A stretch of DNA of 64,000 nucleotides from Acutalibacteraceae bacterium (GTDB lineage Bacteria; Bacillota; Clostridia; Oscillospirales; Acutalibacteraceae): assembly GCA_045531935.1 (NCBI GenBank), contig JAZSEX010000033.1, positions 16,294 to 80,293 of the forward strand, in the 5' to 3' direction. A model generated the notes under the pieces. That model made no database searches, was not told the origin of the DNA, and was given only the letters and a program-made list of their open reading frames with translations. Within the stretch, counting starts at the first letter, position 1, and each line of letters starts with the position of its first letter. Positions 2,438-29,828 of this stretch are shown in pieces. The position numbers and the translations under genes were made by a program.

Positions 2438-2991
2438 GTAAAAGACTTGATTTCACAGCAAAAACGTGACACGGGAAAGCCTACTACGTTGAAATAGTCA
2501 CCCTCAATGCCCTTTACAAGCACTGAGCCTTTGCCCTGAATTCCGTAACTGCCTGCTTTGTCCATAGGCTCTTTACTTGCTACGTACTGTGCAATAAGCT
2601 CATCCTCAAGCGGCCAGAAAGTAACCTTTGTGCATTCGTAAAACTTATGCACCCTATCACCTTTTATTATGCACACGCCTGTATATACCTCGTGTGTATT
2701 GCCCGAAAGGTCACGCAACATCTGCACTGCATCAGCTTCGCTGTGCGGTTTGCCGAGCACTTTACCGTCAAGCACAACCACCGTATCCGCACCTATAACA
2801 GCCGCATCGGGGTTATCTTTTGCAACAGCTGATGCTTTCTGAAAGCTGAGGCTCATAACAAGCTCGCACGGGGCAAGAGATGCGTCGAGCACCTCGTCAA
2901 CGTCAGCGGTAATAACCTCAAAATCAAAACCTGCAAGTGCCATAAGCTCCCTGCGTCGCGGAGATGCAGAGGCTAAAACGAGCCTGCTCAT
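2434..2991 (-). CDS. maf: Maf-like nucleoside triphosphate pyrophosphatase
   Basis: N-terminus LVLASASPRRRELM and GKPxxxxxA ... AGSYGIQG motifs over 185 aa. The start overlaps the stop of the upstream EEP gene (ATGA). Confidence 0.9.
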   Translation of the reverse strand: MSRLVLASASPRRRELMALAGFDFEVITADVDEVLDASLAPCELVMSLSFQKASAVAKDNPDAAVIGADTVVVLDGKVLGKPHSEADAVQMLRDLSGNTHEVYTGVCIIKGDRVHKFYECTKVTFWPLEDELIAQYVASKEPMDKAGSYGIQGKGSVLVKGIEGDYFNVVGFPVSRFCCEIKSFT

Positions 2992-4649
2992 GCCTGCTCC
3001 TCCACAAAGAGGAGGTCAGAGTAAATTGCAAAGTGGTCAGAGGCATAGATGCCGTCCATAACGTCGTACTTTGTAACCTCGAAGCCGCCGTTGATGAAGC
3101 AGTAGTCAATACGCTGGTAGTCATCTCTGCCCTTTTCGTAGCCATTATATGTGCCCGAGTTATCTGTTTCAGGTACTGTAACACAGCAGTCAGCATAGCC
3201 TCTGCCTGTCATAAGCGCAATAGCCTCGCTGTCGGGTGTTGCATTGAAGTCACCTGTAATAACAACGGGAATATCAAAGCTGTCTGCCTTATCGGCAACG
3301 AGCTTTGCCTGGTTTGTCATAGCCTCAACGCTTACGTGGTCGAGGTGAGTGTTGAGCACGGCAAACTGTCTGCCGTCAGCCTTGCACTCAAAAACAGCCC
3401 AGGTACAGATACGGTTACAGGCAGACTCCCAATCCTTAGAAGGCACTTCGGGAGTAAGTGAAAGCCAGAACGTGCCGCTGTCAACAACTGTGTATTTATC
3501 TGTACGGTAGAAGATAGCAGAATGCTCACCTGCGTTTACACCGTCATCTCTGCCGACACCTACGTGTGCATAAGTGCCTGCATACTCGGTGGTAAGCAGA
3601 TACATCCAGTCGGGTGTACCCTCCTGAGTGCCGATGATATCAGGGCTGACAGTTGCAATAACGTCTGTAAGCTCCTGCAGACGCTGAAGCGGATCTCTGA
3701 AGCGGAGATTGTAGGACATAATTCTGATGCCTGTTTCACCGATGTTCTCATAGCTGAGCTTCATCTTTGAAACTACGGGATAGTGGTCGGAGGAATATGC
3801 ACCGTCGACCTTACCGCTGAGCACCTTGTAGCTCTCAACCTTTGCCTTTGCATAGCTGACAAAGATAAAGTCAATCGGGGAAGCACCCTTCTTCTCAACG
3901 TTTTTCATACCGAAATTGTGGTAAGTGCCCATAGACATTTTTTCGTCTGCACAGTACTTTGTATCCATAAAGCCTGCCGCAACAATTGTGTTGTATGCAT
4001 CTGTACCCTCATCCGTATTAAAGTCGCCTGTGAGTACTACGGGCACATCAAACTCACTTGCCTTTTCGGCAATAAGCTTTGCACCGTTTTCGCGTGCTTC
4101 TACGCCGATATGGTCCATATGTGCGTTCATATGAGCATATCGCTTACCGCTCTCCTTCTCCTCGAGGATTACCCATGTGCAGATACGCTTGTACATAGCA
4201 TCCCAACCCTTTGAGGGTGTATCGGGAGTTTCGGACAGCCAGAATGTGCCGCTGTCAACAAGTGTGTATTTATCCTTAAGATAGAAAACGGGTGAAAACT
4301 CGCCGCCCTCAGCACCGTCATCTCTGCCGACACCTGCCCATGCATACTCGGGCATAGCCTCACTTACACGGTTAACCCATGCAAAATCAGCCTCCTGCAG
4401 ACCGAATGAGTCGGGCATTTCACCACGGATTGTCTTTGCAACAAGCTCACTGCGGTTTTCGGGTGATTTTTTGCCGACACCTGCAATATATACGTTGTAG
4501 GTCATAACCTTAACGTCGAGTGTATCACCGACAGGCTCAGCAAAATTATAAGACGGCAACGGAGTTGCAACCGAAATGCCGAGAATAAGAGAAATAAACC
4601 ACTTTAAAAAACCACTGTAGAGATTTACCCAAAAAGATAATTCGTACAA
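2988..4649 (-). CDS. secreted protein with two tandem endonuclease/exonuclease/phosphatase (EEP) domains
   Basis: TTG start with GAGGAG 7 nt upstream, and an N-terminal hydrophobic segment FLKWFISLILGISVA. Two collinear copies carry the EEP motifs: YNV/YNL, LQE/TQE, GVGRDDG, VDSGTFWLS, RICTW, TGDFN, SDHYP/SDHFA. Confidence 0.8.
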   Translation of the reverse strand: MYELSFWVNLYSGFLKWFISLILGISVATPLPSYNFAEPVGDTLDVKVMTYNVYIAGVGKKSPENRSELVAKTIRGEMPDSFGLQEADFAWVNRVSEAMPEYAWAGVGRDDGAEGGEFSPVFYLKDKYTLVDSGTFWLSETPDTPSKGWDAMYKRICTWVILEEKESGKRYAHMNAHMDHIGVEARENGAKLIAEKASEFDVPVVLTGDFNTDEGTDAYNTIVAAGFMDTKYCADEKMSMGTYHNFGMKNVEKKGASPIDFIFVSYAKAKVESYKVLSGKVDGAYSSDHYPVVSKMKLSYENIGETGIRIMSYNLRFRDPLQRLQELTDVIATVSPDIIGTQEGTPDWMYLLTTEYAGTYAHVGVGRDDGVNAGEHSAIFYRTDKYTVVDSGTFWLSLTPEVPSKDWESACNRICTWAVFECKADGRQFAVLNTHLDHVSVEAMTNQAKLVADKADSFDIPVVITGDFNATPDSEAIALMTGRGYADCCVTVPETDNSGTYNGYEKGRDDYQRIDYCFINGGFEVTKYDVMDGIYASDHFAIYSDLLFVEEQA

Positions 4650-4665: not shown

Positions 4666-4697
4666 CAAAAACAGCCCACCCGAAATCGGGTGAGCCG
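4666..4697 (-). terminator. rho-independent terminator after the giant gene
   Basis: Minus strand: GGCTCACCC-GATTTC-GGGTGGGCT followed by GTTTTTG. One arm position is a G-U pair only on the minus strand. Confidence 0.6.
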
Positions 4698-4720
4698 CTT
4701 TTAATTTTTAGAATGATTGC

Positions 4721-7700
4721 TTATGCGTTATAGGAAGCAATCGTGCTGTAATCAGTGATGATATCACCGTCAGCATTCTGATAGATGACGTAAGCTCTTG
4801 CATACACAACTGTACCTGCTGTAGCGGAAACCGCACCTGCATAGTAACCGTTGGCTGCAGTGCTGTTGGAAAGGCCCTTACCTACGCCTGAAGCACCAAG
4901 AACAAATGCGTCTTCGTCTGTACCGACAGAAGCTGTCTTGGTAACGATGATACCTGTCTGGATAAGATCGTAGCCTGCAGGTATCGAACGCTCAGCATAG
5001 AAGTTAACCTTCTTAGATGCACTGTCGTACTTGGCTGTGGAAATTCTTGCTACGGGAACAGGAACAACAGCAGAAGCATCACCGTAAACGGGTGTAAGCT
5101 CTGTATCCTTGATAGCGTGGAATGTATAGGATCTGTTGTAGGAAGCGATATCACCTGTTTCAGCATCGATCCAGTAGAGGAAGCTCTCACCTGCAGCGTT
5201 TGTTGCAGATGCGCTGATGCTTACAAGTGCTCTGTCATTGTCAACAGATTCGTATACGCCTGCGCCTGTTGTTGTCCAGTTACCCTCGGTGAGGGTAACT
5301 GTGTTCTTAACAACAAGTGAGTAAACGGGTCTTACAATAATCATCTTTTCGTCGCTTGCAAGGATTTCTTCCTTTGTCATACTCCACTCCTTGAATACGT
5401 GCTCAGGAAGTGAGGGAGCAGCAGGAACTTTGTAATCTTCGCCTTCAGCAAGCTCGAAGTTTTCAACAAGATTCTCAGCATTGTTTACGTAAACGACAAG
5501 CTTCTTATCACTGTTGAAGCACTCGTTTGTTGTGAACTGAGATGTGAGATCCATGTCTGTAACAGCTGTAAACTTATAAACAGCAGAAGCACTGATTATT
5601 CTGTTAGAGCTGTTATTTGTCCAGTAGTAGAAGTCTGAACCGGCCTCAGTCTGAACAGCCTCAAGAGTAACAACTGAACCGTAAGGAACAATCTTCTTGG
5701 ACATTACGGGAACGTTGCTGTAGCTGCCTTCGTTGTAGCCGAAGCGGATCTTACCGATACCGGCAACGATAAGCTTGACTTCAACACTCTTTGTAGTTGC
5801 AACAAAGCTGAATGCAACGGGAGTGATTTCCCATGCACCGTCAACCTTAGCGGTTGCAGTGTAGTTATGTGTACCCTCTGTGAAGGTGTACTTAACAGTC
5901 CATGTGCTTGTGCCGTCACCGTTGTCTTTAACAGTTGCCTTGTCAGCGGTCCAGATTTCCTCTGTGCCGTTGTCAACGTTGTAAAGCTTGATAGCCTCAA
6001 CACCGGACTTAACAACAATACTGAGCGGTTCACCCTTCTGCTTTGCGAAGACATTGCCGTCAGGGCCTGCCTTAACAATTGAAGAGGGCTCAATAAAGTT
6101 GAGCTTGATTGTTTCGCTGTTGTTGAATACGAACTCGATTACCTCAAGGTCCTCGCCTGTGTTGACACTGACATCTGAGGTATCTGCCTTGTACTTAACA
6201 ACGTTGTTGTAAGTTTCATCAACTGTGAGTAAGATATCGCCGTTTGCGTCTGCATTAACGGGAACAGAACCGACGTTGCCTGCGTTATCTGTTACTGCAA
6301 CAGTGAAGAGCTTGCCTGCGTTAGCGGCACCTGTCTTGATTGTGAAGGTGTTATCCTCTGATACGTAGGTGAAGTCATCAACGTGGAGCATATCGAACAG
6401 GTAGTCGATGTAGAGTGAGCTGCCCTGAGTACCCATGTAATTGAACAGGTCAACCTTTGCTACACCTGAACCGCCGGGCTCTGTAACAGTAACCTTACCT
6501 ACACCGTTTGCTTCAAGCTCAGGCTTAAGCTGATCGTAATGATTTACCTCAACAATTCTGTTACATACGTTACCGAAACGATCTGCAACGTGAATAAACA
6601 TCAATTCACCATTATAAGGAGCACCAACAATACCTACCCAATTATCGCCTGCACCATAGGATATGAATTTGGTTGAATCAGCCTCCTTGCTCTCTTCATT
6701 AAATGTTGCAATAAACTCACTATTTGAATTGAGTTCACTGATGAATTTTTTCTTTGCTGCAGCTTCACCATTTTTAAAGTATTCATTTGCAACAACATAG
6801 TCAAGACCTTCTGTTGCGTTAGGATCAATCTTGTAAATGAAGCTACCGAAGTTGTTCTCACCAAAGGTGGGATCTACGTATGCTGCACCAGTTGCAAGAG
6901 TAGCGGGTGAATCGCTGAATTCCCAGTTTCTGACTGCACCGTTGAATAATCTGTAGAAAGCAAAACCGTTGCTCCACTTATCTTTACCGATATTTGAATA
7001 CTCATGATGAGTAAGAACAGCAGAACCGTTTACGGAACCGTCAGCATTCACGCCGTTGTCATTGCCGTCAGCGGGCATGGAGTTCATGTAGTAAACAAAT
7101 ACTGTAATCTTACCGTCTTCTGTTGTTTTTACAGGTTTGTTGTCGCCGCTTGCATATTTGAAGCTGTCAACACCGTTTGCAGTTGATGAGATTTCACCTG
7201 TTTCAGCATCCTTTTCAACAGCTGAGTCAGTTGCATCAATTGTGTAAGCAGCTGCCTGCTGTGTACCGTCAACATTACTGAACTGCGGGCTGAGGATGAG
7301 ATATGCAGAAGAATCTACATCATATCCGCCTGCTGCGTTCTTAGCTGTCTGAGTAGATACTGAATCTGTACCTGTAAGAGCTTTACTTACAGAGCTGATT
7401 GCCATACCTGTATCTACATCGTGAACGGGAGTGATAACATTAGCAGTTACACCCTTCATAGCCTGAGCAGATACTGACATCTTTTCGGGCTTGGATGTTG
7501 TAACAGTTCTCTGTGAACCGTCAGTGTTGAGAGCAGATGTTGTATCCTTAAGTGAAACAACAATCTGCGGATTGAGCTGATTAGTGTAGACGTAGAGTGT
7601 GTAACCGCCGAGGTTGGGAGTCATGTAGGAAGCAGTTACCATCTTGTCTGCTGAGGGAATTGTGTTTGCAAGCTCCTCTGAATGCTCTTCGTAGAACTTG

Positions 7701-10700
7701 TTGAGGTCAGTCTGAGTGTTATGGATTGTAACAACAGGAGCAAATGTATCAACGTAGAGTACAAGAGCCTTTATAGCCTTCTCAAGTCTGTCCTCTGCCT
7801 CAAGAACCTGAGTTTCATTGATAACTGTAACATCTTTATAGTTCTTTGCATTCTCAAAGGCCTGAACGAACTCGTCCCAGATGTTTTCGTTATTTGCATC
7901 GAGTGCCTCGTGGTCATAGAGTGACTCATCACTCATGATATCATCACCTGATCCGAGAGCTTCAACAAGAGTTTCTGTTGTAGCCTTACGAAGCTCAAGA
8001 TCGTTGATGATTTCTACAAGCTCTGCATAGATGTTATTAATTATCGCCTGCTGTGTCTTGGGAGTATCGTAAAGTGTATCACCGTTTTCAGTGTGATCGA
8101 ATTCAATATCGAAGCCTGTCTTGTTGGTGATATTGAAATTGTTAGCAGCCGCCTGAACAGTTGCGTTGATAATGTCGTTATCACCAAGGAACTCGATAAC
8201 AGCTCTCAGAGAGGTATCGGTGTACTTGGTGAAATCATAGAAGCCGCTTGCGTGGAAAACACCTTCACCTGCACCCTTCATGATCTTGTCGTTTCTGTAA
8301 ATAAACGCATTACCTGTTGTACCGAGTGTAGTGTGAGTTGAAGTGAAGAACTCCTCACCTACTCCGTTGTCATCGATATCGTATGAACCGAGAGAAGCGG
8401 CATTGCTCGGGTTGTTATAAAGGAATGCCTTTACAAGCGAAGTAATCTGGCTGAGATCAGCTTTGCCGAGACCGAGCTTCTCAAGTTCTGCAATAATTCT
8501 TGACTTAACGCTGTTTGTATCACCGTTAACAAGAGCTGCCTTATCGATGGTGTACTTATTGGTAAGTTCATTACCGAATACTGTTTCAAGAATATACTCA
8601 ACAGCCTCTGTACCACCGTCATAGCTTGCAGGAAGCTTTGTTGAGTAGTAGTAAATATTACCGTCGTCATCTGTAATGATTTTGTAATCAACTTCAGGTG
8701 TGCTAAGGTCATCCAGGTCACTGAGGATGCTCATATTGAATACGCGTCCGCCAAGTGAGTTAGCTTCAGTTTTACCTACAGTATCATCAACAATGATAAT
8801 ATCTGTTTTGTTGTCTTCTTTGTATGTAGGAACAAGACCGAGAGCCTCGTAGATAAGAGTAGCAACCTCTCTGTATGCATCTGTAGCATTGAGGAGCTTA
8901 AGTCCGCAAAGTTTCTCATACATTGCAACTGTTGCTGTATCGACTGCTTTCTGGTCAGCCTGGACAGCGCTTATAAAAGCGTCTCGGTTTTCTGCAGTCC
9001 AGCAAACAGCATTATTTGTTGCTTCTCTTTCAATGCCTGCCATAACCTCTGCAGCAACGGGTCCATAACCGTAATTTTTTTTCTGATAAGCAAGGAATTC
9101 AGCTGAAGCTTCCTTCTGGTTCAGAACTGCCTTGTAAGAATCGTCCGTGAACCAGCCGCCGTATGAGCTGCCTGTTACGGATTCAAAATCTTCACCCTGA
9201 GCGAGGTAGTACATTGAGCCGTCCTGGTAAATATCAATACCATAGCCGTTTGTATACCAGTCGCCATCTTTTCTTGCAGGTACTGCGTTCATGTTGTAGC
9301 CGAACTCAGCATCGTTGATGATAACTTCGCCTGCAGGAGAAGCAAGAACATAAATCTCTGAACCTGTATCATGGACAGCTTCACTTGTAAGCCATACAAG
9401 AGCATTTGCATCGTGATTGTTAATCTGGCTGCGAGCATCGCCATAGAGGTATGAGTAACCACCAACCAGAGAAACAATCTCTTTACCGACCAGAACTTCT
9501 CCTATAACTTCACCGTTTTCATCAACGTCTGCAAATACAAGCTGATCAGGATGTGTTGTTTCATCCAGTGTAATACCGATTGAATCGTCGAGCAGGTTGA
9601 TAGTCGGCCAGTTTTCAGTTGTACCGAATGCACCGCGATCTTCCTGTCCGTCACCGTCAATTGCAAGCTTAGCACTTTGACGTATGTCATTAGTAAACAG
9701 GGGAACTTCCTTTGTATAAAGCGGTTGTGTTGCTGAACTTCTGTAATCGACTTTGACTGTGATTTCTGTTGCAAGGAATTTATACATATCCTGTCTCATA
9801 TCAAGACCGAAGCCTGCATACTGTGCGCGTGTACCTGTTACATAGTTGAACAGATCTTCGGTAAGAACGTTAACAGCTTCAAGAGCTGTCTCGTATCTTA
9901 CAGCAACACCTGTTGAGTAATCGAGATAGACATCACCAACCTCATAGTTAGAACCGAGAACTGTGTAAATAGCATTAAGCTTATTCTGGATAGCTATCTG
10001 CTGTGCACTGCGGATATCCTTCTCTGCTGCAGGAATGTTTTTTTCGTCAACAGTTGTTGCGAGATAGTCAGCTGTGTAAGTGCCGATACCGTCGCCTGAG
10101 CCGATACCATTGTAGGTATAGCTACCTGCGATAAAGTTATCAACAAGGTTTCTTACACCGATTGTGAATTCGTTGTCTTCCTCAACATCGAACTTCTTTG
10201 TTTCAAGGTTAGCAAGAAGATCCTGAATTACAACAAGTTCATCGAGCAACATCTGCTGCTTTGTAACGTCAATCTCACCGTCCTGAAGGTATTTTACGCA
10301 GAACTGATTCCAAAGTGTTGTGATTTCAGAAATATCGCCGTAGGGTGATAATTCAATCGTACCGATTGAAGGATCAGTGATAACACGATTGCCGTTTTCG
10401 TCAACATATACTGTGCTGTTTGTATATGTGTTAACAGTAACAAACGTTGTGCTGAGCGAATCAATCTGTGCACCGATAGAATCGATAAGAGTCTGTGTGC
10501 TGTCATCAAGGCCCTTCCATGTAAGGATTTCTCTTGTGTCGTGAACCTCTGTGGTGTGTGCATTGATGATAGCCTGATCCTTAGCAGTAAGATTTCTGTC
10601 AGCCTTTGTGGCTAAGAGATATGCTGTCTGGTAAGGAGTCCATGTATCAGATGTGAAATACTTTGAACCGAGCTCATTGTCGAGTGTGAATGTGCCGTCG

Positions 10701-13700
10701 CCGTTGTCGAGCCATACCTGATAGACAAGCTCCCAAGCGCCGTCGGACTCAGCCTCGAATATCTTGCCGAGTTCTTCGTTGAAGAATGTGTAATCAGCAG
10801 GGCTGTACTTAAGACCTTCATCGTCTGCTTCTTTTGAAAGGTCACCGTAGAAGCCGCCTGCTTCAGTTGTGAGCTTGATCTTGTTGTCGATATCTGTGTT
10901 TTCAAGGATATCGAATACCCACTGGTCAATAACATCCTGACTTGTTGTATCTGTAAGTGCCTCTGCTGCTGCAAGAGCGTCAACAAGCTCTGCAACAGAT
11001 TCGTCTGTGAAGAGGTTGCCGTAGCTGACTTCACCTGCGCCGTTTACGATTTCAAACTTCTTGTATTCACCGTCGTCGCCGTAAAGCTCATCGTTTGCGT
11101 ACTCGATAGCATCGTTGAGGGCATCGAGGAACTGGCCGCCTTCAACAAGAAGGTATCTTTCGTCACGGTCTGCGCCGTCGTAGTCCTTATCACCGGACTC
11201 GGAAGCAAGACCGACTGCTGCCCAGATTTCGTCAGCAAGTGTACCGTCAATAACATTACCTGCGTTGTCGTTGTAACCTGTAACTGTAGTGTTAGTGTCC
11301 CAAAGAGTTACTTTGTTTGCCTTTGTGGCATTGATAACAGCCTTAGCTGCTATGACAGAATCAGCTGTGAACTTGGAGGTCTCAAGAACCTTGTCTCTGC
11401 CGTTCAGCTGAAGCGGGTCGTAAGCAGCCTTTGTGCTTTCGTTAAGCTTTGCTGTAGCATTGTCTTCTGCACGTGTTACCTGTGCAGGTACGAAGGAAGC
11501 AGCATGAAGCTCGTTATAGAGGTTTGTGATAAGTGCGTTGTAATGAACCTGACCCTGCTTAGCTGTAAGACCGAATCCGTCGTACATCGCCTTGTTGCTG
11601 AAGATGTTGTTGATGGACATACCGTTTTCAGCGTAAACAGTTGCGGGGTTGAAGCCGTTAACACCTGTTCCGAAAACAGCGTTGAAATAGCTTGACATTG
11701 TACCGGAATCAGCAATTGTAATAGTGTCACCTGCGTTATCGTTGAGGTGTTTGATGATGCTGTTCCATCCGTCAAGGTAAACGGGAGCTGCATTCTTTTC
11801 AAGGTTATCAATAACAGTCTTATAGTTGTTAACTGCATTTACATACTCGGTATAATTGGGACCGAGGTTTTCGTTAGCAAGATTAATGATATTGTCCTTG
11901 AATGTACGTGCAAGAGCAATCTGAGTCGGGCTGTAAACCGATCTCTTAACTGTCTCGAGCTGACCCTGAGCGTTAACTATAACAACGTCAACTGTCTCGT
12001 TCTCTTTTTCAAGGAGCATAGCATCAAGCTGCTCGTTGATTGAAGCATAGGTACCTGTAAGACCTGCGATTGTGCCGTCAAACTCGTTTATCTTCTTAAA
12101 GCCGAGCTTGTAATAAGCAACAAGGAGGTCATAAGTAGCCTTGTTGATTGAGCCTTCAACGTCTACTGCACCGTCGCCCTGAGCATCAACCTTGAGGCCG
12201 TTTGTAGCAATACCGTTTGCACCTGCATCGCCGTAAGCCTGGTTATAACCGGACTGTGTGCTGTAAGCATTCTGACCAACGAAGAACTTCATAGCTTCCT
12301 GTCTTGCGTTGTAGTATGCTGTCCAGCTTTCGGCTGTATACCAGTTAGCACCTGTCTTATCCATACCGAGAGCCCACTGGTTTTCGGGTCTGTTACCCTC
12401 ACCGTACTGCTCGTATGTGGGAATCCAGGTCTTGTTAAGAAGCATTGTAAGGCCTGAGTAGTCAGCAGCGTTGAGGTTACTTTCTCTTGTGTTGTAGAGA
12501 GCAACGTAATCGTCTATAGCTGACTTATAGCCTGCAATGTTTGTAGCCATGGGCTTGCCTGAGTAGCCCTGAATTGCCTGATATGCAGCAGACATGTTGT
12601 TCTTATAATCAGTTGTATAGTACGGATGGTCTGTGAAGTAGAGGGCGTTGCCCTGAACCTGACCGATAGACTGCGGAGCATCGTAGCGTGACTTAAACAC
12701 CTTAACTACCTTGTCGGCGATCTCGGTGTTGTAAACGCCTGCTGCAGTATTGATATCAGCGAATGTAGTCTCGCCGAGGATTGCGTTTGCATCGTTGACT
12801 CTGAAGTCATCCATAGGTCTGAGCTTGAGAGCGGCTCTCTTCTGATAGATGATCTGAGTCATATGGTTGATAGCATCCTGGTTTTCTGCAAGAGTTGCAC
12901 CGTCAATGATGCCGGGCTGTGCAGTCTTTGTGCGCAGATACTCTGCCCATGTGTCGGCAGTGTACCACTGTGCACCGTCCTTAAGCTCGTTGCCGTTTGC
13001 ATCATAAATAACGTATTGCTCGAGGTTTGCGTAGTTTGAGCCACCCTTTTCATACTCTGCGTAGGAGTTCTTCTGAATTTCGAGCTGGCTCATATCGTAT
13101 GATGAGGGAACAAGCTTTTCATAGTAGTAGTCAACAGAAGCGATATCGGGCAGGATTTCAGCCTCAACGTAGAGGGCGAGAATCCACTTGGAGCTGTCGT
13201 TTGTTGACTGATATGTGCTTGTTGCGTTGAGAAGGTTTTCTTCATAGGAATTCTTGAAGCCGTAGCTTGCGCCGCCCCATGAAGCATCGGTCCAGGGATT
13301 GATTGCCTTAATATATTCACCTGCACCGTTTGAAACCCAGATTTCGCCTGCATCGTAAGCGCCGTTGCCGTTTGTATCGCCGTTGTTACCCTTATTATAA
13401 GTTTCTTTAACCTTATTATCGGTAACAACAAAACCTGCGTTTGCGATGTCAGCTGCAAGTGAGTTATAGCTTGTTTTGAATACGGGTGTGTAGAGGTAGC
13501 TTGAACCTCTGTCACTCTTGTTGTAGTTAGCGAAGTAAGTTACTCCGTTTTCTGTGTAGGTACCGTCATCGCTGTAGTACTCGCCTGCCTTACGGAACTC
13601 AAGAGCCTCGTAAGCATCACGTGCTGTGTTGTAGAGACAGTTTGTTGTGTCGGGCACGTCAGGTGAAGTTACGTTCTTGTAAGTGAAGGTCTGCGGATAA

Positions 13701-16700
13701 AGTCTGTCGAGTTTTTTTGTTGTTGCAACATACCCTCCGTCAGAATTCTTCTCATAGACTGTAACACTCGCATTTTCACTGGGCTTTTTGAGAGTTCTGT
13801 CAATGTTGAGTGAATTCTTGAAAGCAGTATAAGTTGTATATGTATATATACCGCTTGCAAGTGCCTTTTCGTTTGCGTAGTTCTTAGCAGTGCCGTCGTT
13901 GTGGTAGCCTGCATACTCGTCACGCATAAAGAGTATCGTATCGTTTGTTGAATTATAATAATTAGTATACTTATCAAATGCAGTATAGTCTGCAGGAGCA
14001 AGACGAAGCTTATCCCAAGCCTCCTGAAGGTCATCAGCATAGTCGTTGATGTACGACTGGAAACGAAGGTCAAGGTGAGCATCGTGAAGGTTGCCTGCAA
14101 CGTCGCTTGCAGCGATAAGCTGAGAGTCTGTTTCAGCGTAAACAGTAGTTCTGTTCTTGATTGTTGCGATAAGGTCTGCTGCGTTATTAAAGAACATATC
14201 CTTAGCGTATCTCTGACCTGCATAGCGCTGGTCATCACCGCTTGCAATAGCAAATGTAAGGCTCTCATAATCGGGTACGCTCTCGTTTGAACCGGCTGTG
14301 AGACCCAGACCGGTTATTTTTGCGAGTGTGCTTACAAGCTTACTGTAGTCAGCATCCTTATAAACAGGGTTCTGCCAGAGGTTAACAAGGAGATTGGAGT
14401 CGAAGTCTGTGCCCCAGAGGTTACCGCAGGCTGTGTAAGCCTTCATAACCTCTGTACGCCACTGGCTCCACCATGCGGGATCCATATCATCTTCCTGGAA
14501 ACCAACGATTGTGCCGTCAGTTGCCTGGCCGGTAACATAGGTAATCATTGCGTGAGCGTTGGATCGGTCAACTCGGTTGAGAACAAAAGCAAAACCTATA
14601 GTAGAGTAGTTATAGTCGCCGCCATCTGATTTCTCAGACTGAAGAATCATTCGAGAATATGATGTATTATAGCTTGATAAAGCATTAACGGTATTGAAAT
14701 ACATTGTGTATGTTGTACCATTTACAATATCCGTGATAATCTTTCCGTCATCATCATTTTCATTTTCCCAATTATTTCCTGTATTTGAAAATGCAAACAT
14801 ATCGGAAGATGAAATAGTGTTTGCTGTATACTTACCACCATATTTGGTTCCGTTATAAGTTGAGGTGTCCCAATATCTTCTAACCCATGGCTGATGGCCA
14901 TCAACAGCGACAAGTGTCATTTTCAACTGAGGTTTAATACTCGCACCCGTAGCCTGAGGGTCAAAATAGATATGAGTTACTATATACTCATCACTGTTGC
15001 GCGAACCGCTATCTTCTGTATAATTGTATAGACCATTATAATAAGCATCTTTGTGTGTTGTGTAACTAAGATAAACAGCATCTCTGTTCTGATAAAAAGT
15101 TACTCTGCCAGCTTTAGCATTATAGCCACCATTACCCCAAGTTGAAGTACCTACTGACCAACCGACTTTTTCACCTGTGCCATAACGTGAGTAACTGTTA
15201 TGTGTACCATTAACAACAGTTGATTCAAATGATGTGCCCTGAACGCCACCATAAAGAGCAACTATACCGGAAACACCTCGTGAACTAAGTATATTATTCT
15301 CAAGTGTTACCGTTGCATCAAGGTGAATTCTTGTATTCTTTTGTACGCTTCCGTTCCAGAATCCACCGTTTCTTCTTGTTCTTGTCGCCCAAACACCTTC
15401 GGTATTCGGAACAGATTTAACATAAGAAGCGGCATACTGTGTATAAACATCCGCTTTACCGTCTTTATTTATATCATCCTTGACACCGTCTTTATTATTG
15501 TCAAGTGAATATGTAAGCTTATAGTAAATACTGTTGCCTGCTGTTGCGGTACCGCCTGTAATTGTGGTAGTCCACTTTGTACCGTTCTGTGAGGTTGAGG
15601 TTGTAACAGCAGAGTTAACGTTGTCGTTTCCTTCATTAACTACCGTACATTTAACGTCTGTTGCATTTGTAGGAACCTCATAAACAAGAGAGCGGTCTGT
15701 GTAAGGTGCTGCAGTCTGGATTTGATTGCCGCTTACATAAATAATAGGCGGAACTGCAACCGATGTAAATTCGCTTGTGTTATTGAGAAGTCCCTCAGTA
15801 CTCGGCTTACCCTTGTTGGAGTTAAGAAGGGCAGCAATAGCCGACTGAAGCTGAGTATGGAATGTGTTAACTTCTGTCTGATTTGTCTTAATCTGTGCGT
15901 AGCAGTTAAGAGCATTCTGATATGCGGTCGTGTAAGCATCCCACATCTGCTGTGTAGCGTTGGGGTAGTCGGACTGCTTACGTGGGTTCATAAGCTCAGA
16001 CATTGTGAGCTCACGGAGTGCACCCTTATCGTAAGTATGGAAATAGAGGTAGAAGGGAGATACCGCATAGAGAAGAATACGATAACCACCCTCGGAGTTA
16101 CCCTTGTTACGAACACCTGTAAACATTGTCATACCTGTGCCGTTAAGGGCAAGAGCTGCTTCCTTACTGTCTACTACAAGAGGATAACCCTTATACTGGC
16201 CTGCCATCTTACCGATAAGGTTGTCGGCTGAAAGGTTGGCATTTACGTGGGTTGTACCCAGTCCGTTAAGGCTCTGCTGACGTGCATATGAATCATAAAG
16301 GAAGATTGTTGCGTTATCCTGTGCACCGTCGGAACCTGTTGAATTGTTTTCTGCGGTTACGGCAGCGTTATAGCTTGCATAGCTGTCACTCGGGTCAACC
16401 GTTGCACCGCTGGGGTTGAAACCGTAATCGCCGTCATAGAAGCCGATACCTGCAACATATTCCTGGAAGCCTCTGTCAAGGTCCTTCTGAATCCAGAAAT
16501 CGATGCTGACACCTGTGTCAAGTCTGCTGTCGGTTGCGGAAACCTTATTAAGCGCAGATACATCGAAGTAGATATCAGTTTTTGGTGATGCAGTGATTGT
16601 TCTCTGCGAAACCTGACCTTCTGTAACTTCTTCACGTGAAGGAGAGAATCGGAACATACTGAATCGGTTATCGCCTGCATGATTGATCCATGACTGGTCA

Positions 16701-18595
16701 ACGTCGGCAATCATAAGCGAGTAGTTGTAGTATGTATTGGAGTTGAATTTATCCTGATTTGTGGTCACATCACGTGCCACGCTGTATGCACCTGTACCGG
16801 AAAGCGTACTGATATAAGCAAGGTCAACATAGTGCTTGGAGTTATTGCTCTGACGCCAGCCACGGAACCAGTCGTTATAACCGGCAGGCTGCTTGATACT
16901 TTCAACAACAGTAGAGTTGCGGATTTCGTATTCAACGCCGCTAAAAGTATACTTTACAGAGTAATTGATGTACTCACCTGCAGTAAGTATGCTTTCGTCC
17001 TTGATGGCGTACTTGTAGAGCACACCTTCGCTTGTGTTCTCGGTACCGAGGTTTGTCAGGGTTGCCTGAGCGTTAGCCGCTGTTCTATGAGCACTGAACG
17101 TAACATCTGTTGCACCCGATGGCAGACAGTAGCTGACCGCAAGGTCCTGGTCATACGGCTGCTTGGTTTTATAGTCGAGCAACTGTGTCTGAACAGAATT
17201 ACCGAACTCCTGCTTTGCACGGACGTCAGCAAGGTTCTCTGCAGCACCGACATAAACAGTCTTGGGAACCGAAAGAGTATTGACAAGCTGAACGCCTTCG
17301 CCGTTGATAGCTTCGATACGCTCTTCGTCAACGTCTGCGCTGCCTGTAACTGTAAGCTGTGTATAGCTCTTGACCTCTGTTGTCATAGAAACTTCGCCGG
17401 TTGCATCGTCAAGTGTGAACTCGAAGTAACGACCCTTGGGGTTCTGGTCGGTATTGTAGTTCTCCTGAGTAAGAGCACCACCCATGATGAAACGGAAGCC
17501 GTTATCGTCAACAACGTCAAAGTAGTTGTCATGGTCGTGACCGAAGGTCATACCAAGACAGTTACCGGGGAGGCGAAGTGCATCGTAAAGAGCAGTTGTT
17601 GCGCCCTTATAGAGCCAAGTCGGACAGGGAGCTTCAGCCATAACACCACTGGGGTTGTTGGCAGGGTCAAGACGGATATACTGCCAATCTGTAACATGAG
17701 TGTATCTGTCAGGTGTAGGTACACCGTTTGTTGAGTCAGCCTGAATAAGAGCACCTGTGGTGTAAATTTCCTGCAGGATAACGTGCTGTGAAGCAAAGGT
17801 GGGGACATAAGCCGAAGGCTGACCTGTAACCTGTGCCTTATAGCTGTACTGGCTGCCTGCAAGGGTATTGTTCATATTGGTGTACCAGTCAACAATCTGC
17901 TGGTAATAAGTATCGTTATCGCCACCGGGACGGAGCCAACCGTCATCCTCGTCACCCTTTGAGTTGAAGAGGGCAAAGTTGAGTGCTACGCCGTTAGGCT
18001 TAGGAGCAGGATTGCCATTACTATCTTTCTGTGCAGCAGCAACTTCATCAGATGACCATGCCTGAACGGTAACGTTACCTGCGCCGGGAGCACCGTCAAG
18101 GTCGATGGTGCTGAAGTTATTATCCCAGTCGATGAAATAACTCTTCTCCATCTGGTATTCCCACTGATGGTTGAGTGAGCCAAAATCGTACTCGTGGTTA
18201 CCGGGCATTGCAATAACCTTACATGTCGATTTCATGTAGGGGGTAAACAAGTTGTATGCTCTGTCAACAGCATCCTCCCACTGGCTCTTTGTAGAAGTGC
18301 TGCCGCCCTGAGTCTGGTCACCTGTAAGCAGGATTACGTCAGGGTTGTAGCGCTGCATGAGCAAGCGGACTGTTTCTCTCGTACGCTCGGTGATAGCGCC
18401 GCCACTGACCGATGTCTGAATATCGGGCAGCTGAAGCACTTTAAGTTTACGTGTTGTGTCGTCGAAATGAATGCCGAAGTCTGTCTTCTGCTGATTCTGC
18501 AGACTTGCACTCGCCTCAAAACCGGTCATAGCAAAGAACGATGCGATCATCGATACTACGAGCAGCAATGAGAGAATTTTCTTCGTTATTCTCAT
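4721..18595 (-). CDS. giant secreted multidomain protein (~4,624 aa): signal peptide, metallophosphoesterase domain, FIVAR-like helical modules, C-terminal Listeria/Bacteroides-type repeats
   Basis: The ORF is uninterrupted. ATG at 18593-18595 has AAGGAGG 11 nt upstream and is followed by MRITKKILSLLLVVSMIASFFAMTGFEASAS. Metallophosphoesterase motifs GDQTQ, GNHEY and GHDHD lie at ~17456-18448. W/Y-T-x-x-S/T-W helical modules recur. FxxW / YxW beta repeats occupy the last 352 aa (4724-5779). Confidence 0.85.
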   Translation of the reverse strand: MRITKKILSLLLVVSMIASFFAMTGFEASASLQNQQKTDFGIHFDDTTRKLKVLQLPDIQTSVSGGAITERTRETVRLLMQRYNPDVILLTGDQTQGGSTSTKSQWEDAVDRAYNLFTPYMKSTCKVIAMPGNHEYDFGSLNHQWEYQMEKSYFIDWDNNFSTIDLDGAPGAGNVTVQAWSSDEVAAAQKDSNGNPAPKPNGVALNFALFNSKGDEDDGWLRPGGDNDTYYQQIVDWYTNMNNTLAGSQYSYKAQVTGQPSAYVPTFASQHVILQEIYTTGALIQADSTNGVPTPDRYTHVTDWQYIRLDPANNPSGVMAEAPCPTWLYKGATTALYDALRLPGNCLGMTFGHDHDNYFDVVDDNGFRFIMGGALTQENYNTDQNPKGRYFEFTLDDATGEVSMTTEVKSYTQLTVTGSADVDEERIEAINGEGVQLVNTLSVPKTVYVGAAENLADVRAKQEFGNSVQTQLLDYKTKQPYDQDLAVSYCLPSGATDVTFSAHRTAANAQATLTNLGTENTSEGVLYKYAIKDESILTAGEYINYSVKYTFSGVEYEIRNSTVVESIKQPAGYNDWFRGWRQSNNSKHYVDLAYISTLSGTGAYSVARDVTTNQDKFNSNTYYNYSLMIADVDQSWINHAGDNRFSMFRFSPSREEVTEGQVSQRTITASPKTDIYFDVSALNKVSATDSRLDTGVSIDFWIQKDLDRGFQEYVAGIGFYDGDYGFNPSGATVDPSDSYASYNAAVTAENNSTGSDGAQDNATIFLYDSYARQQSLNGLGTTHVNANLSADNLIGKMAGQYKGYPLVVDSKEAALALNGTGMTMFTGVRNKGNSEGGYRILLYAVSPFYLYFHTYDKGALRELTMSELMNPRKQSDYPNATQQMWDAYTTAYQNALNCYAQIKTNQTEVNTFHTQLQSAIAALLNSNKGKPSTEGLLNNTSEFTSVAVPPIIYVSGNQIQTAAPYTDRSLVYEVPTNATDVKCTVVNEGNDNVNSAVTTSTSQNGTKWTTTITGGTATAGNSIYYKLTYSLDNNKDGVKDDINKDGKADVYTQYAASYVKSVPNTEGVWATRTRRNGGFWNGSVQKNTRIHLDATVTLENNILSSRGVSGIVALYGGVQGTSFESTVVNGTHNSYSRYGTGEKVGWSVGTSTWGNGGYNAKAGRVTFYQNRDAVYLSYTTHKDAYYNGLYNYTEDSGSRNSDEYIVTHIYFDPQATGASIKPQLKMTLVAVDGHQPWVRRYWDTSTYNGTKYGGKYTANTISSSDMFAFSNTGNNWENENDDDGKIITDIVNGTTYTMYFNTVNALSSYNTSYSRMILQSEKSDGGDYNYSTIGFAFVLNRVDRSNAHAMITYVTGQATDGTIVGFQEDDMDPAWWSQWRTEVMKAYTACGNLWGTDFDSNLLVNLWQNPVYKDADYSKLVSTLAKITGLGLTAGSNESVPDYESLTFAIASGDDQRYAGQRYAKDMFFNNAADLIATIKNRTTVYAETDSQLIAASDVAGNLHDAHLDLRFQSYINDYADDLQEAWDKLRLAPADYTAFDKYTNYYNSTNDTILFMRDEYAGYHNDGTAKNYANEKALASGIYTYTTYTAFKNSLNIDRTLKKPSENASVTVYEKNSDGGYVATTKKLDRLYPQTFTYKNVTSPDVPDTTNCLYNTARDAYEALEFRKAGEYYSDDGTYTENGVTYFANYNKSDRGSSYLYTPVFKTSYNSLAADIANAGFVVTDNKVKETYNKGNNGDTNGNGAYDAGEIWVSNGAGEYIKAINPWTDASWGGASYGFKNSYEENLLNATSTYQSTNDSSKWILALYVEAEILPDIASVDYYYEKLVPSSYDMSQLEIQKNSYAEYEKGGSNYANLEQYVIYDANGNELKDGAQWYTADTWAEYLRTKTAQPGIIDGATLAENQDAINHMTQIIYQKRAALKLRPMDDFRVNDANAILGETTFADINTAAGVYNTEIADKVVKVFKSRYDAPQSIGQVQGNALYFTDHPYYTTDYKNNMSAAYQAIQGYSGKPMATNIAGYKSAIDDYVALYNTRESNLNAADYSGLTMLLNKTWIPTYEQYGEGNRPENQWALGMDKTGANWYTAESWTAYYNARQEAMKFFVGQNAYSTQSGYNQAYGDAGANGIATNGLKVDAQGDGAVDVEGSINKATYDLLVAYYKLGFKKINEFDGTIAGLTGTYASINEQLDAMLLEKENETVDVVIVNAQGQLETVKRSVYSPTQIALARTFKDNIINLANENLGPNYTEYVNAVNNYKTVIDNLEKNAAPVYLDGWNSIIKHLNDNAGDTITIADSGTMSSYFNAVFGTGVNGFNPATVYAENGMSINNIFSNKAMYDGFGLTAKQGQVHYNALITNLYNELHAASFVPAQVTRAEDNATAKLNESTKAAYDPLQLNGRDKVLETSKFTADSVIAAKAVINATKANKVTLWDTNTTVTGYNDNAGNVIDGTLADEIWAAVGLASESGDKDYDGADRDERYLLVEGGQFLDALNDAIEYANDELYGDDGEYKKFEIVNGAGEVSYGNLFTDESVAELVDALAAAEALTDTTSQDVIDQWVFDILENTDIDNKIKLTTEAGGFYGDLSKEADDEGLKYSPADYTFFNEELGKIFEAESDGAWELVYQVWLDNGDGTFTLDNELGSKYFTSDTWTPYQTAYLLATKADRNLTAKDQAIINAHTTEVHDTREILTWKGLDDSTQTLIDSIGAQIDSLSTTFVTVNTYTNSTVYVDENGNRVITDPSIGTIELSPYGDISEITTLWNQFCVKYLQDGEIDVTKQQMLLDELVVIQDLLANLETKKFDVEEDNEFTIGVRNLVDNFIAGSYTYNGIGSGDGIGTYTADYLATTVDEKNIPAAEKDIRSAQQIAIQNKLNAIYTVLGSNYEVGDVYLDYSTGVAVRYETALEAVNVLTEDLFNYVTGTRAQYAGFGLDMRQDMYKFLATEITVKVDYRSSATQPLYTKEVPLFTNDIRQSAKLAIDGDGQEDRGAFGTTENWPTINLLDDSIGITLDETTHPDQLVFADVDENGEVIGEVLVGKEIVSLVGGYSYLYGDARSQINNHDANALVWLTSEAVHDTGSEIYVLASPAGEVIINDAEFGYNMNAVPARKDGDWYTNGYGIDIYQDGSMYYLAQGEDFESVTGSSYGGWFTDDSYKAVLNQKEASAEFLAYQKKNYGYGPVAAEVMAGIEREATNNAVCWTAENRDAFISAVQADQKAVDTATVAMYEKLCGLKLLNATDAYREVATLIYEALGLVPTYKEDNKTDIIIVDDTVGKTEANSLGGRVFNMSILSDLDDLSTPEVDYKIITDDDGNIYYYSTKLPASYDGGTEAVEYILETVFGNELTNKYTIDKAALVNGDTNSVKSRIIAELEKLGLGKADLSQITSLVKAFLYNNPSNAASLGSYDIDDNGVGEEFFTSTHTTLGTTGNAFIYRNDKIMKGAGEGVFHASGFYDFTKYTDTSLRAVIEFLGDNDIINATVQAAANNFNITNKTGFDIEFDHTENGDTLYDTPKTQQAIINNIYAELVEIINDLELRKATTETLVEALGSGDDIMSDESLYDHEALDANNENIWDEFVQAFENAKNYKDVTVINETQVLEAEDRLEKAIKALVLYVDTFAPVVTIHNTQTDLNKFYEEHSEELANTIPSADKMVTASYMTPNLGGYTLYVYTNQLNPQIVVSLKDTTSALNTDGSQRTVTTSKPEKMSVSAQAMKGVTANVITPVHDVDTGMAISSVSKALTGTDSVSTQTAKNAAGGYDVDSSAYLILSPQFSNVDGTQQAAAYTIDATDSAVEKDAETGEISSTANGVDSFKYASGDNKPVKTTEDGKITVFVYYMNSMPADGNDNGVNADGSVNGSAVLTHHEYSNIGKDKWSNGFAFYRLFNGAVRNWEFSDSPATLATGAAYVDPTFGENNFGSFIYKIDPNATEGLDYVVANEYFKNGEAAAKKKFISELNSNSEFIATFNEESKEADSTKFISYGAGDNWVGIVGAPYNGELMFIHVADRFGNVCNRIVEVNHYDQLKPELEANGVGKVTVTEPGGSGVAKVDLFNYMGTQGSSLYIDYLFDMLHVDDFTYVSEDNTFTIKTGAANAGKLFTVAVTDNAGNVGSVPVNADANGDILLTVDETYNNVVKYKADTSDVSVNTGEDLEVIEFVFNNSETIKLNFIEPSSIVKAGPDGNVFAKQKGEPLSIVVKSGVEAIKLYNVDNGTEEIWTADKATVKDNGDGTSTWTVKYTFTEGTHNYTATAKVDGAWEITPVAFSFVATTKSVEVKLIVAGIGKIRFGYNEGSYSNVPVMSKKIVPYGSVVTLEAVQTEAGSDFYYWTNNSSNRIISASAVYKFTAVTDMDLTSQFTTNECFNSDKKLVVYVNNAENLVENFELAEGEDYKVPAAPSLPEHVFKEWSMTKEEILASDEKMIIVRPVYSLVVKNTVTLTEGNWTTTGAGVYESVDNDRALVSISASATNAAGESFLYWIDAETGDIASYNRSYTFHAIKDTELTPVYGDASAVVPVPVARISTAKYDSASKKVNFYAERSIPAGYDLIQTGIIVTKTASVGTDEDAFVLGASGVGKGLSNSTAANGYYAGAVSATAGTVVYARAYVIYQNADGDIITDYSTIASYNA

Positions 18596-19146
18596 AATCG
18601 AAATTTCCTCCTTGAGAATATTTTGGAGTTTGCAATCCGCCAAGGATTGCTTCCCCATTCTGACCGAATGTGGGCTGTCGGACAAAACGTCCGACAAGGG
18701 ATTGCGTAAAATTCCGGTTGAATTTCGCAGGGACGGTAAATGCGGCACAAAACCGCACATTGTGTTTTGCCATTGCAACCATACGGTTGCGAGTAGGGGA
18801 CACGTCCCCCGCTCCGATTGATATTTCGTCCGCTCGGGACGGGAGACCCATCCCCTACGATAACCTCGCCGCTGCCGCCACCGGATACTCAGCCGCAGCA
18901 CCGCCGCCGACCTGACCGTCGGCACACAGCAACCGCGTGCAGCGAAGCGTTTTTTGTTTTGTGCTGACAGCCGCTGTTTTCAGCCCTGACCACTGCCGAA
19001 AAAAAGCTGTTTTTACCCCGAAAAAGACCTCCTGATATTGTCTGCCGCACACCGCCGAAACCGACGAAAAAAGCAGAAAACAACATCTTGTGTATCAAGT
19101 CTTATCAAGACACAAAACATAGTATTATATATAATAATACGGTTTT
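18596..19146 (-). promoter_or_regulatory. long (~545 nt) hairpin-rich 5' leader of the giant gene; class unknown
   Basis: No credible ORF lies here. Stems (plus-strand coordinates): 18632-38/18644-50, 18677-83/18689-95, 18741-45/18753-57, 18775-80/18785-90, 18793-800/18851-58 enclosing 18803-08/18836-41, and 18906-11/18918-23. The segment is visibly more GC-rich than its surroundings. Confidence 0.4.
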
Positions 19147-19175
19147 ACTATACCAAGTTTTTGGCTCTGTGTCAA
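19147..19175 (-). promoter_or_regulatory. sigma-A-type promoter for the giant gene
   Basis: Minus strand: TTGACA (19170-19175), 17 nt spacer, TATAGT (19147-19152). Confidence 0.5.
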
Positions 19176-19651
19176 CATTTTCGGGCATATTTTCACCCTG
19201 GTTTTTCCAACTTTGTGCACCCTGCCCAAACTCTCAGCTTCTCTATGTAACCTATGCACAAATCACGCCCTCAAATTATCGTCTGAAAATGCCTTGAAAA
19301 CAGTCGGAAAACCCACGTAAAACCATTCTTTTTCCGCCTTTTTATTCCGTCGTCAACCGACAAAAATCCCGACTTATTTCCCCTGTTTTTATGCCGAAAA
19401 TCCACCTTTTTTATCCTTCCTTTTTTCTTTTTCTCCACAAAAATCGTCTTGTTACAAATCCCTTTTCAGCTTGTTTTTCACCCCTGAAAACCACCAAAAA
19501 ACTTGCCTTTTTCTCTGTTTTTATTCCTCAAAATACTGTAAAAAATTGCAGAGTTTACAAAAAATTTACAATTTAATTCCGATAAAAAAGATTAACACCG
19601 CGTCAGAATTCTGTTTCGGAATAATGTAATAATGATTATTTAAAATATTTG

Positions 19652-26499: not shown

Positions 26500-26579
26500 C
26501 GATTATCATCACATCCGAAAAATCAGCTTAATTGTATTACTGAGACTATAACACAAAATATAATTTTTTTCAACAAAGC

Positions 26580-26612
26580 AAAAAATGCGGTATGCACCGT
26601 GGCACACCGCAT
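26580..26612 (-). terminator. rho-independent terminator
   Basis: Minus strand: ATGCGGTGTGC-CACGGT-GCATACCGCAT followed by TTTTT. The single non-Watson-Crick position is G-U only on the minus strand. Confidence 0.7.
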
Positions 26613-26624
26613 CTGAAGCCGTGA

Positions 26625-26930: not shown

Positions 26931-27007
26931 TTTACTTCACTCCTTAATTAATTTCTTTTGTTTGATAATAGCATCTGTGCCGTATTTTGTCAACCGAGCA
27001 ATTTATA

Positions 27008-27036
27008 TTGACAATAATATTTTTAAGCTTTATAAT
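27008..27036 (+). promoter_or_regulatory. sigma-A-type promoter of the polysaccharide operon
   Basis: TTGACA (27008-27013), 17 nt spacer, TATAAT (27031-27036). A 7-bp inverted repeat TTGTCAA/TTGACAA overlaps the -35. Confidence 0.55.
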
Positions 27037-29822: not shown

Positions 29823-29828
29823 GCCTAA

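Follow-up and report, generated by a model that had tools for sequence, protein, structure and literature searches.

A 13.9-kb gene for a secreted giant protein with a predicted metallophosphoesterase head and a candidate regulatory leader RNA in an Acutalibacteraceae genome

A 13.9-kb gene on the minus strand, here written (-), of an Acutalibacteraceae genome (assembly GCA_045531935.1, contig JAZSEX010000033.1, positions 16,294 to 80,293) raises the question of what a secreted protein of 4,624 amino acids (aa) does outside the cell, how it is retained there and how so long a message is controlled. The 64,000 nucleotides (nt) analyzed are called the window, and all coordinates are positions within it. 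An initial annotation, made from the letters and their open reading frames (ORFs), had described a single uninterrupted gene for a secreted protein with a calcineurin-type metallophosphoesterase (MPE) head, helical and beta-rich modules and no recognizable anchor. Here we followed up this description with profile searches, comparisons of orthologous loci and structure prediction. Our overall reading is that the giant protein is a stalked phosphoesterase, retained by a C-terminal block and controlled by its leader, and we assign this reading a probability of about 0.5.

The coding sequence occupies 4721..18595 (-) as one intact ORF of 4,624 aa plus the stop codon. In the ORF listing of the window, the frame is open over 4721..18925 (-), which corresponds to 4,734 codons counted from the first GTG. 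The ATG at 18593-18595 is nevertheless the true start, because this Met and its ribosome-binding site (RBS) are common to all orthologues, whereas the in-frame stretch upstream of it stays open for anything from 20 to 98 codons. The RBS (AAGGAGG, 18607-18613 (-)) stands 11 nt from the ATG and is invariant among the orthologues, all of which begin with MRITKKI. An 8-bp stem, TATTCTCA/TGAGAATA, encloses the RBS and the start codon (18587-18620). Translation from this ATG opens with MRITKKILSLLLVVSMIASFFAMTGFEASA followed by S, and aa 1-31 (18503..18595 (-)) form a Sec-type signal peptide with an A-S-A cleavage motif, which is conserved in the orthologues and in the stand-alone relatives of the head described below. 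The mature protein would have a mass of ~504 kDa and a pI of 4.4, with 13 Cys in the 4,624 aa. Against four orthologues, the Nei-Gojobori dN/dS (omega) was 0.08-0.40 across all 200-codon windows. Since every window falls in this range, the whole 13.9 kb is translated and under purifying selection. This selection is relaxed relative to the neighboring genes (omega 0.01-0.13), the constraint on the giant gene being ~3-6 times weaker. The GC content of the gene is that of the surrounding DNA. From these comparisons, the giant gene is best regarded as real, intact and lineage-restricted, and its product as exported via the Sec pathway. The single gene of the initial annotation, with its start at this ATG, thus stands on the ORF, the RBS, the conserved start and seven collinear homologues, and the proposed secretion on the A-S-A motif and the sole hydrophobic segment of the protein.

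These full-length homologues, of 4,574-4,782 aa and 42-79% identity, were found in seven other assemblies, all of them Acutalibacteraceae/Clostridia metagenome-assembled genomes (MAGs) from ruminant guts, and each is collinear with residues 1-4624. A scan of GTDB species representatives yielded six loci, two of which end at contig edges and four of which carry full-length, uninterrupted ORFs of 4,574-4,650 aa (L008, a Clostridia MAG from goat cecum; L009, L010 and L012, Acutalibacteraceae MAGs). A HMMER search of a 50%-identity library added P0024 (4,619 aa, 69% identity), P0025 (4,730 aa, 45%) and P0026 (4,782 aa, 42%). The exact protein sequence was not found in a collection of 15 billion proteins, homology searches with segments of the protein yielded 2-4 fragments apiece, and a scan of the Joint Genome Institute (JGI) metagenomes with the head gave no match. 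All known carriers of the family belong to a small number of uncultured species from ruminant guts. Across syntenic species, the giant protein is 63-79% identical, and the neighboring proteins are mostly 75-98% identical. The gene call is broken at one locus (L007). In a more distant lineage represented by two independent assemblies (L014 and L015), the gene is called as two ORFs and has an in-frame TAA close to the position that corresponds to aa 3985 (L014:1490-1525); this may reflect a pseudogene, a split gene or read-through. The L014 homologue shares 38% identity over aa 3497-4622. The gene is also polymorphic for presence and absence: a segment of ~14.5 kb comprising the leader and the giant gene (window ~4675-19140) is missing from L001-L003, relatives at ~84% nt identity, in which the genes on either side, for a deaminase and an endonuclease/exonuclease/phosphatase (EEP) protein, lie ~216 bp apart (L001:9785-10000). 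The simplest history would be a deletion of this segment in the L001 lineage.

The MPE head (17396..18463 (-), aa ~45-400) carries the motifs LQLPD58IQ60, GD93Q, GN133H134E, QH271 and GH353DH355. The calcineurin-type head proposed initially was recovered by Pfam Metallophos (PF00149) at aa 52-168 with E 1e-10 and 39.3-42.3 bits, against a cut-off of 21.5. The family matched above the cut-off in 8/8 family members, and the alignment reaches only the N-terminal half of the model. D58, D93, N133, H134, H271, H353 and H355 are invariant among the giant proteins down to 42% identity. Motif I, D58-I-Q60, has Gln in the position of the canonical His, and motifs II-V are present. A profile search of 1.84 billion representatives with the head gave 223 relatives in three groups: the giants, proteins of 1,200-3,200 aa, and many stand-alone proteins of ~400 aa. 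All the stand-alone proteins inspected have a signal peptide, and their annotation is the generic Metallophos only. In most members of this subfamily motif I reads [SAT]-D-x-Q, a few stand-alone relatives retaining D-x-H, and the other motifs are conserved as GD[NQ], GNH[DE], QH[IV] and GHDHxN. Because most of the stand-alone relatives carry the Gln too, it appears to be a trait of the subfamily rather than a sign of decay.

When the subfamily profile was compared with the PDB, the matches to solved MPEs were weak and restricted to motifs II-III (Mre11/SbcD, 6.5e-5; SMPDL3b, 1.6e-3; purple acid phosphatase, 2e-3; Rv0805 and GpdQ weaker). The motif pattern may resemble that of the Dcr2-like MPP group (CDD cd07383). 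By its motifs and profile matches, the head belongs to an uncharacterized subfamily of secreted MPEs and is a genuine member of the superfamily; it is probably an enzyme. With no solved or named enzyme closer than E ~1e-4, no substrate class can be carried over from a characterized relative. The beta-alpha-beta start of the fold is seen, at low confidence, in an AlphaFold2 model of the head. An insert of ~130 aa separates motifs III and IV. Between the same two motifs the head in the window has an insertion of ~20 aa, DEVAAAQKDSNGNPAPKPNG (17990-18049 (-), aa ~183-202), which is absent from the 4/4 homologue fragments aligned there (P0016, P0017, P0022 and P0023).

To define what follows the head, Pfam scans covered the whole protein, ten overlapping 560-aa tiles and all eight family members. 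Only two families were obtained, Metallophos and one borderline FIVAR module (15827..16027 (-), aa 857-923), for which PF07554 scored 29.8 bits in the tile, just over its cut-off of 29.2, and 26.3 bits when the protein was scanned as a whole; PF07554 matched 5/8 family members. The 5_nucleotid_C domain was absent from the whole-protein and tiled Pfam scans. NCBIfam contained no useful family for the giant protein and none for the head or its stand-alone relatives. A PDB sequence search with the whole protein and searches with 7- and 8-member family profiles gave nothing significant in any region, and self-BLASTP of the giant protein detected no internal repeat at E<1e-3. Internal repetition was further assessed by an all-against-all hhalign comparison of 91 orthologue-profile tiles. 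This identified three related helical 'W-Y-T-x-x-[ST]-W' modules (10502..12979 (-), aa 1873-1930, 2081-2118 and 2643-2698) at 93-96% probability and E 1e-8 to 3.5e-7, a second, weak FIVAR-like module (7760..7882 (-), aa 3572-3612) at 60% probability against the FIVAR tile, and a weak pair of beta modules (aa 484-550 and 967-1030) at 72%. Thus, the at least eight FIVAR-like modules initially proposed are a plausible reading that is supported in part: one borderline FIVAR and one weak link (60%) were recovered, along with a separate helical trio. By these searches, the giant protein is essentially non-repetitive, with ~96% of it outside known families. In the ~3,500 residues after the head, beta-rich modules are mixed with helical ones, with hardly any repetition.

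Divergence along the gene is uneven. Against L008, L010 and L012, the dS of aa 4201-4600 is 0.19-0.28, compared with 1-3 in parts of the stalk (aa 1000-1400 and 1800-2200) and 0.3-1.2 in the flanking genes. The closest partner also changes along the gene, L008 being distant before aa ~2200 and close after it. Because dS varies strongly along the gene while omega is similar throughout, the gene is an inter-species recombination mosaic. A polymorphic toxin or contact-dependent inhibition (CDI) effector was rejected as an identity for the protein, since the C-terminus is conserved and is not a variable end.

Such mosaic divergence is typical of adhesins, as are the great length, the acidic pI and the FIVAR and Flg_new-like modules of the giant protein. 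It might therefore be a fibrillar adhesin that binds plant particles, host mucus or cells, in which the MPE-like head would bind, for example, phosphorylated ligands without catalysis, and the likeness to enzymes would be vestigial. The change of His to Gln in motif I, the GDQ of motif II compared with the GDN of stand-alone relatives, and the restriction of the Pfam match to the N-terminal half of the Metallophos model are consistent with this explanation. However, the seven other metal ligands listed above are invariant in the family, the head ranks with the better conserved parts of the protein, and the Gln also occurs in most of the secreted stand-alone proteins of ~400 aa, which lack a stalk that could serve in adhesion. 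We therefore regard a non-catalytic adhesin as unlikely.

The question of retention arises because the anchor search was negative. No Pfam or NCBIfam anchor domain, LPXTG-like motif, SLH domain, dockerin, cohesin or choline-binding repeat was found in the giant protein, and a hydropathy scan found no C-terminal transmembrane segment, the sole hydrophobic 19-mer above 1.6 being the signal peptide. In this respect the Pfam, NCBIfam, motif and hydropathy scans agree with the initial annotation, which had listed the same anchors as missing.

A clue comes from distant relatives of 2,000-3,200 aa. The N-terminal unit of ~1,150 aa (15146..18595 (-)), which comprises the head, a beta-rich region and the FIVAR module, shares ~25% identity with these proteins. 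P0028-P0032, P0035, P0036 and P0047 align with the giant protein over aa 1 to ~1,100-1,170 only, and terminate in a duplicated D-x-[DN]-x-D-G...D module. In the five C-termini scanned (P0028-P0031 and P0047), Dockerin_1 scored 15.3-21.6 bits over nearly the full model, against a cut-off of 22.9. P0028 has three clear FIVAR domains as well. By analogy, the N-terminal head and the ~700 aa that follow it may be a cargo that is joined to a C-terminal attachment module in other lineages, and this is the strongest clue to function. Another distant relative, P0033 (2,044 aa), combines an MPE head of the same type with a Y_phosphatase3 domain, which is protein tyrosine phosphatase-like, and fn3; this suggests that family members combine more than one phosphatase domain.

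Because the shorter relatives place a dockerin-like module behind the same N-terminal unit, we propose the conserved C-terminal block of the giant protein (4724..6628 (-), aa 3990-4624) as the best candidate for its attachment device. The block consists of beta modules, Flg_new-like repeats at aa ~4273-4520 and a terminal beta module of ~115 aa. It is the best-conserved part of the protein, being 76-92% identical to the four nearest full-length orthologues and 51-71% identical to P0025 and P0026. For the latter two, identity is 53-57% in the head and 64-71% in the last ~220 aa, and falls to minima of 26-40% in the stalk, so that conservation is highest at both ends of the giant protein. In the last 352 aa (4724-5779), Flg_new scored 21.8 bits (E 2e-4) in 2 stretches, against a cut-off of 27. 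The orthologue fragment P0019 has a precomputed match to the same family (PF09479), and hhalign detected an internal repeat pair (aa 4317-4354 and 4467-4504) at 72-77% probability. The three Listeria/Bacteroides repeats proposed initially for this region are accordingly plausible and backed in part, by the sub-threshold match, the P0019 match and one repeat pair. A second copy of the C-terminal module was found neither in the window nor in the fetched loci. A surface-polysaccharide biosynthesis cluster lies at 25300-36256, probably extending to ~41000, and its products include a CapD-like Polysacc_synt_2 protein, GT1 and GT2 transferases, an EpsG polymerase and a polysaccharide pyruvyl transferase; a GH98-like gene follows at 41110-43050. 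The cluster could be the source of a wall glycopolymer ligand for surface proteins.

The same block might instead bind substrate or extracellular matrix rather than the producing cell, in which case the giant protein would be a freely released exoenzyme or matrix protein. This explanation gains from the lack of any known anchor type and from the lack of a second copy of the C-terminal module, which a shared anchor might predict. In addition, Flg_new/InlB B-repeats are not known as wall anchors. Nevertheless, the dockerin-like C-termini of the distant relatives are attachment devices, and a spacer of 3,500 aa is hard to explain on a diffusible enzyme; release appears improbable to us.

Considerably less probable is the reverse orientation, in which an uncleaved signal peptide would tether the head at the membrane beside the EEP protein and the C-terminal block would be a distal, target-binding tip. 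The EEP partner is itself anchored at its N-terminus, many adhesins have their conserved, functional part at the distal tip, and the C-terminus of the giant protein is the most conserved part among its more distant homologues; however, the canonical A-x-A cleavage motif is kept across the family, and the dockerin-bearing relatives favor C-terminal attachment. Finally, an assembly chimera, a pseudogene or a non-coding ORF that is open by chance, to which the missing exact database match, the in-frame TAA of L014/L015 and the broken L007 call might have pointed, is effectively refuted by seven independent full-length collinear homologues, omega <0.4 in every window, a GC content like that of the neighboring DNA and the conservation of the start codon, RBS and signal peptide.

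Retention of a stalked phosphoesterase at the cell thus remains our preferred reading, and its proposed control lies in the DNA upstream of the gene. Transcription probably starts at ~19140, as judged from a sigma-70-type promoter (TTGACA-17 nt-TATAGT with an extended -10 TG; 19147..19175 (-)), which scored 11/12 in a promoter scan and in which both hexamers are invariant in 7 species. This start would give the giant gene a 5' leader of ~545 nt (18596..19140 (-)). Within the leader lies a GC-rich, structured and near-invariant core (18770..18950 (-)), which contains a 65-nt hairpin and another hairpin whose loop reads GGUCAG. At nine other loci, the core is 87-97% identical in nt sequence, compared with 73-80% for the giant coding sequence and 75-87% for the EEP gene. 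At the locus L016, the core is 89% identical and the head protein shares about 60-63% aa identity. The minimum free energy of the core is -101.6 kcal/mol (z = -5.7), and its 65-nt hairpin is invariant in 9/9 aligned sequences. Compensatory changes occur in 6/63 predicted pairs, in peripheral helices; in one peripheral hairpin, the loop GGUCAGG is constant and the stem co-varies. By eye, three hairpins with GGUCAG loops can be discerned, two of which are backed by the covariation analysis.

The leader gave no gathering-level match in Rfam, the best permissive matches in a scan at E<=10 having E 0.06-8.6, far under the cut-offs. The core is present as a single copy in the window and had no match in the JGI metagenome or viral contig collections. 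On its conservation and predicted folding, it is a candidate for a new cis-regulatory RNA. The core of ~180 nt, with its flanking GGUCAG-loop hairpins, might act as a riboswitch or as an element of processive antitermination devoted to the 14-kb message. An invertible phase-variation switch in the leader was considered and rejected, as there are no long flanking inverted repeats. The leaders of L008 (8470-10000) and L010 (8345-10000) contain extra insertions of ~100-400 nt, made of recurring GC-rich palindromic units such as GGCGGACGGCCAATGGCCGCCCCTACGG, which look like miniature repeat elements. A 16+16-nt palindrome at 19114-19145, directly 3' of the -10 box, is a possible operator. Farther upstream, between the promoter region of the deaminase gene and the giant promoter, lies a variable A-rich tract with many GAAAAA and AAAAAGG repeats (19180-19640), which aligns poorly between species. 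The sole gathering-level Rfam match in the window is the bacterial class A RNase P RNA (54404-54750 (+), 285 bits).

The gene order is the same at all loci: a divergent cytidine deaminase gene, a gap of 1.1-1.6 kb, the giant gene, and the genes for the EEP protein, Maf, a Fur-family protein, ZnuA and an ABC protein. The EEP gene is downstream of the giant gene in the distant L014 as well. It occupies 2988..4649 (-) and encodes 553 aa, which comprise a hydrophobic anchor at the N-terminus and two EEP domains in tandem (Pfam Exo_endo_phos, E 2.5e-31, 2 stretches), and its product is thus predicted to be a second extracytoplasmic phosphoesterase. The promoter scan found no promoter in the 72-nt gap between the stop codon of the giant gene and the EEP gene. 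Read by eye, this gap contains a terminator-like hairpin, CTCACCCG-ATTT-CGGGTGGG followed by the T-run CTGTTTTT (4667..4694 (-)), which the consensus scan did not flag. Because the gap has this hairpin and no promoter, the EEP gene is probably co-transcribed with the giant gene and expressed by read-through. In L001, which lacks the giant gene, a homologous promoter (TTGACT-17-TATAGT) lies ~55 nt 5' of the EEP gene; since this promoter directly precedes EEP, the leader and the giant gene occupy a position between it and the EEP gene. Two other associations were rejected. The chromosomal syntenic context, the neighbor-like GC content and the absence of integrase or phage genes speak against an origin in a prophage or mobile element, and a link to the adjacent two-component system was discarded, since the kinase and regulator are missing from L009, L011 and L013, which do carry the giant gene.

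Based on these results, we propose the following model, in which the giant protein would be a stalked enzyme. Its C-terminal block would hold it non-covalently at the cell surface, as modeled on the shorter relatives with dockerin-like ends, and the long spacer would extend the N-terminal phosphoesterase outward from the wall. There, the head may cleave extracellular phosphoesters, either nucleic acids and nucleotides or phosphodiester-linked glycopolymers, and may act together with the membrane-proximal EEP enzyme. The structured leader would regulate the 14-kb message after initiation, at elongation or translation, in the manner of attenuation, antitermination or a riboswitch. The stalk would diversify through inter-species recombination, as expected of an exposed surface structure. 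The joint claim that this is a new half-megadalton stalked exo-phosphoesterase architecture with an unrecognized C-terminal attachment module, together with a new class of cis-regulatory RNA in its leader, is a more tentative one, and we consider it somewhat doubtful as a whole.

Several observations weigh against the model. For the head, the canonical motif I His is missing, so that catalysis could be altered or lost, and the AlphaFold2 model (aa 32-450, built on a four-sequence alignment) has a mean predicted local distance difference test (pLDDT) score of 35.5, too low for metal-site geometry. For retention, no known wall-binding domain is present, and Flg_new repeats are not established anchors. 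The dockerin matches of the distant relatives lie under the Pfam cut-off, and those proteins are only ~25% identical to the giant protein over the shared region. The AlphaFold2 model of aa 3600-4624 has a pLDDT of 37.5, reaching ~70 in the last 110 aa only, which are all-beta; Foldseek searches with it returned generic Ig/FN3-array matches only, with template modeling (TM) scores <= 0.1, which were discarded as uninformative. As modeled, the stalk and C-terminal folds are thus known as generic beta-sandwich arrays only. Moreover, given the low dS there, the C-terminal identity partly reflects recent recombination rather than stronger constraint; omega in this part is 0.12-0.23, much like that of the rest of the gene. 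For the EEP partner, the terminator-like hairpin divides the two genes, and the retention of EEP in relatives without the giant gene implies that a functional partnership is not required. For the leader, the core is nearly invariant, so the covariation support is thin (6/63 pairs).

Literature searches found no description of a giant phosphoesterase-headed architecture, in agreement with the initial annotation, which could name no described adhesin or scaffoldin type for it. Members of the family in databases are unnamed or generically labeled "metallophosphoesterase." Giant genes are reported as rare in prokaryotes in a preprint (10.1101/2023.11.21.568195). The giant head resembles the PF00149 superfamily in having GD, GNH[D/E], H and GHxH in the canonical order, and differs from it by the D-I-Q motif I and the ~130-aa insert between motifs III and IV.

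Staphylococcal Ebh/Embp proteins consist of FIVAR(-GA) repeats, dozens of them in tandem, are anchored in the membrane or wall by their C-terminus, and are presumed to extend from the wall. The giant protein is likewise very long, secreted, acidic and of Gram-positive type with a FIVAR-type helical module, but its single FIVAR is borderline, it shows hardly any repetition, and it bears an enzyme head and lacks a recognizable anchor. Bacillus subtilis YfkN, Streptococcus suis SntA-D, group B Streptococcus CdnP/NudP and Staphylococcus aureus AdsA are much shorter LPXTG proteins with Metallophos and 5_nucleotid_C domains, which process extracellular phosphoesters. A predicted Metallophos domain would be displayed outside a Gram-positive cell in the giant protein too, although without 5_nucleotid_C and without LPXTG. 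The layout of dockerin-bearing, cellulosome-type proteins of ruminococci and clostridia, with the catalytic module first and the attachment module last, fits the distant relatives of the giant protein, whereas the giant protein itself has no dockerin or cohesin, glycoside hydrolase or carbohydrate-binding module. As in Flg_new/InlB B-repeat proteins, its C-terminal ~250 aa have repeats of the F/Y-x-x-W...V-Y type with a weak Flg_new match, but the score is below the cut-off and the repeats make up little of the protein; to our knowledge, the function of Flg_new repeats has not been established even in InlB. In gut Firmicutes, surface proteins of giant size are mostly repetitive, with recognizable anchors. 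Enzyme domains are already known from large secreted surface proteins, but the giant family is undescribed, and it departs from the known types in its little internal repetition, its unrecognized anchor and the novelty of its sequence.

Because so few species carry the family, all of them uncultured and from ruminant guts, the immediate biological reach of the finding is modest. The giant protein is a target for new extracellular folds and for a new mode of wall retention, and the series from a stand-alone enzyme through a dockerin-tethered one to a giant stalked one makes the purpose of the stalk experimentally addressable. The leader RNA, which is unmatched in Rfam, bears on the expression of very long bacterial genes and is the most promising lead toward something categorically new.

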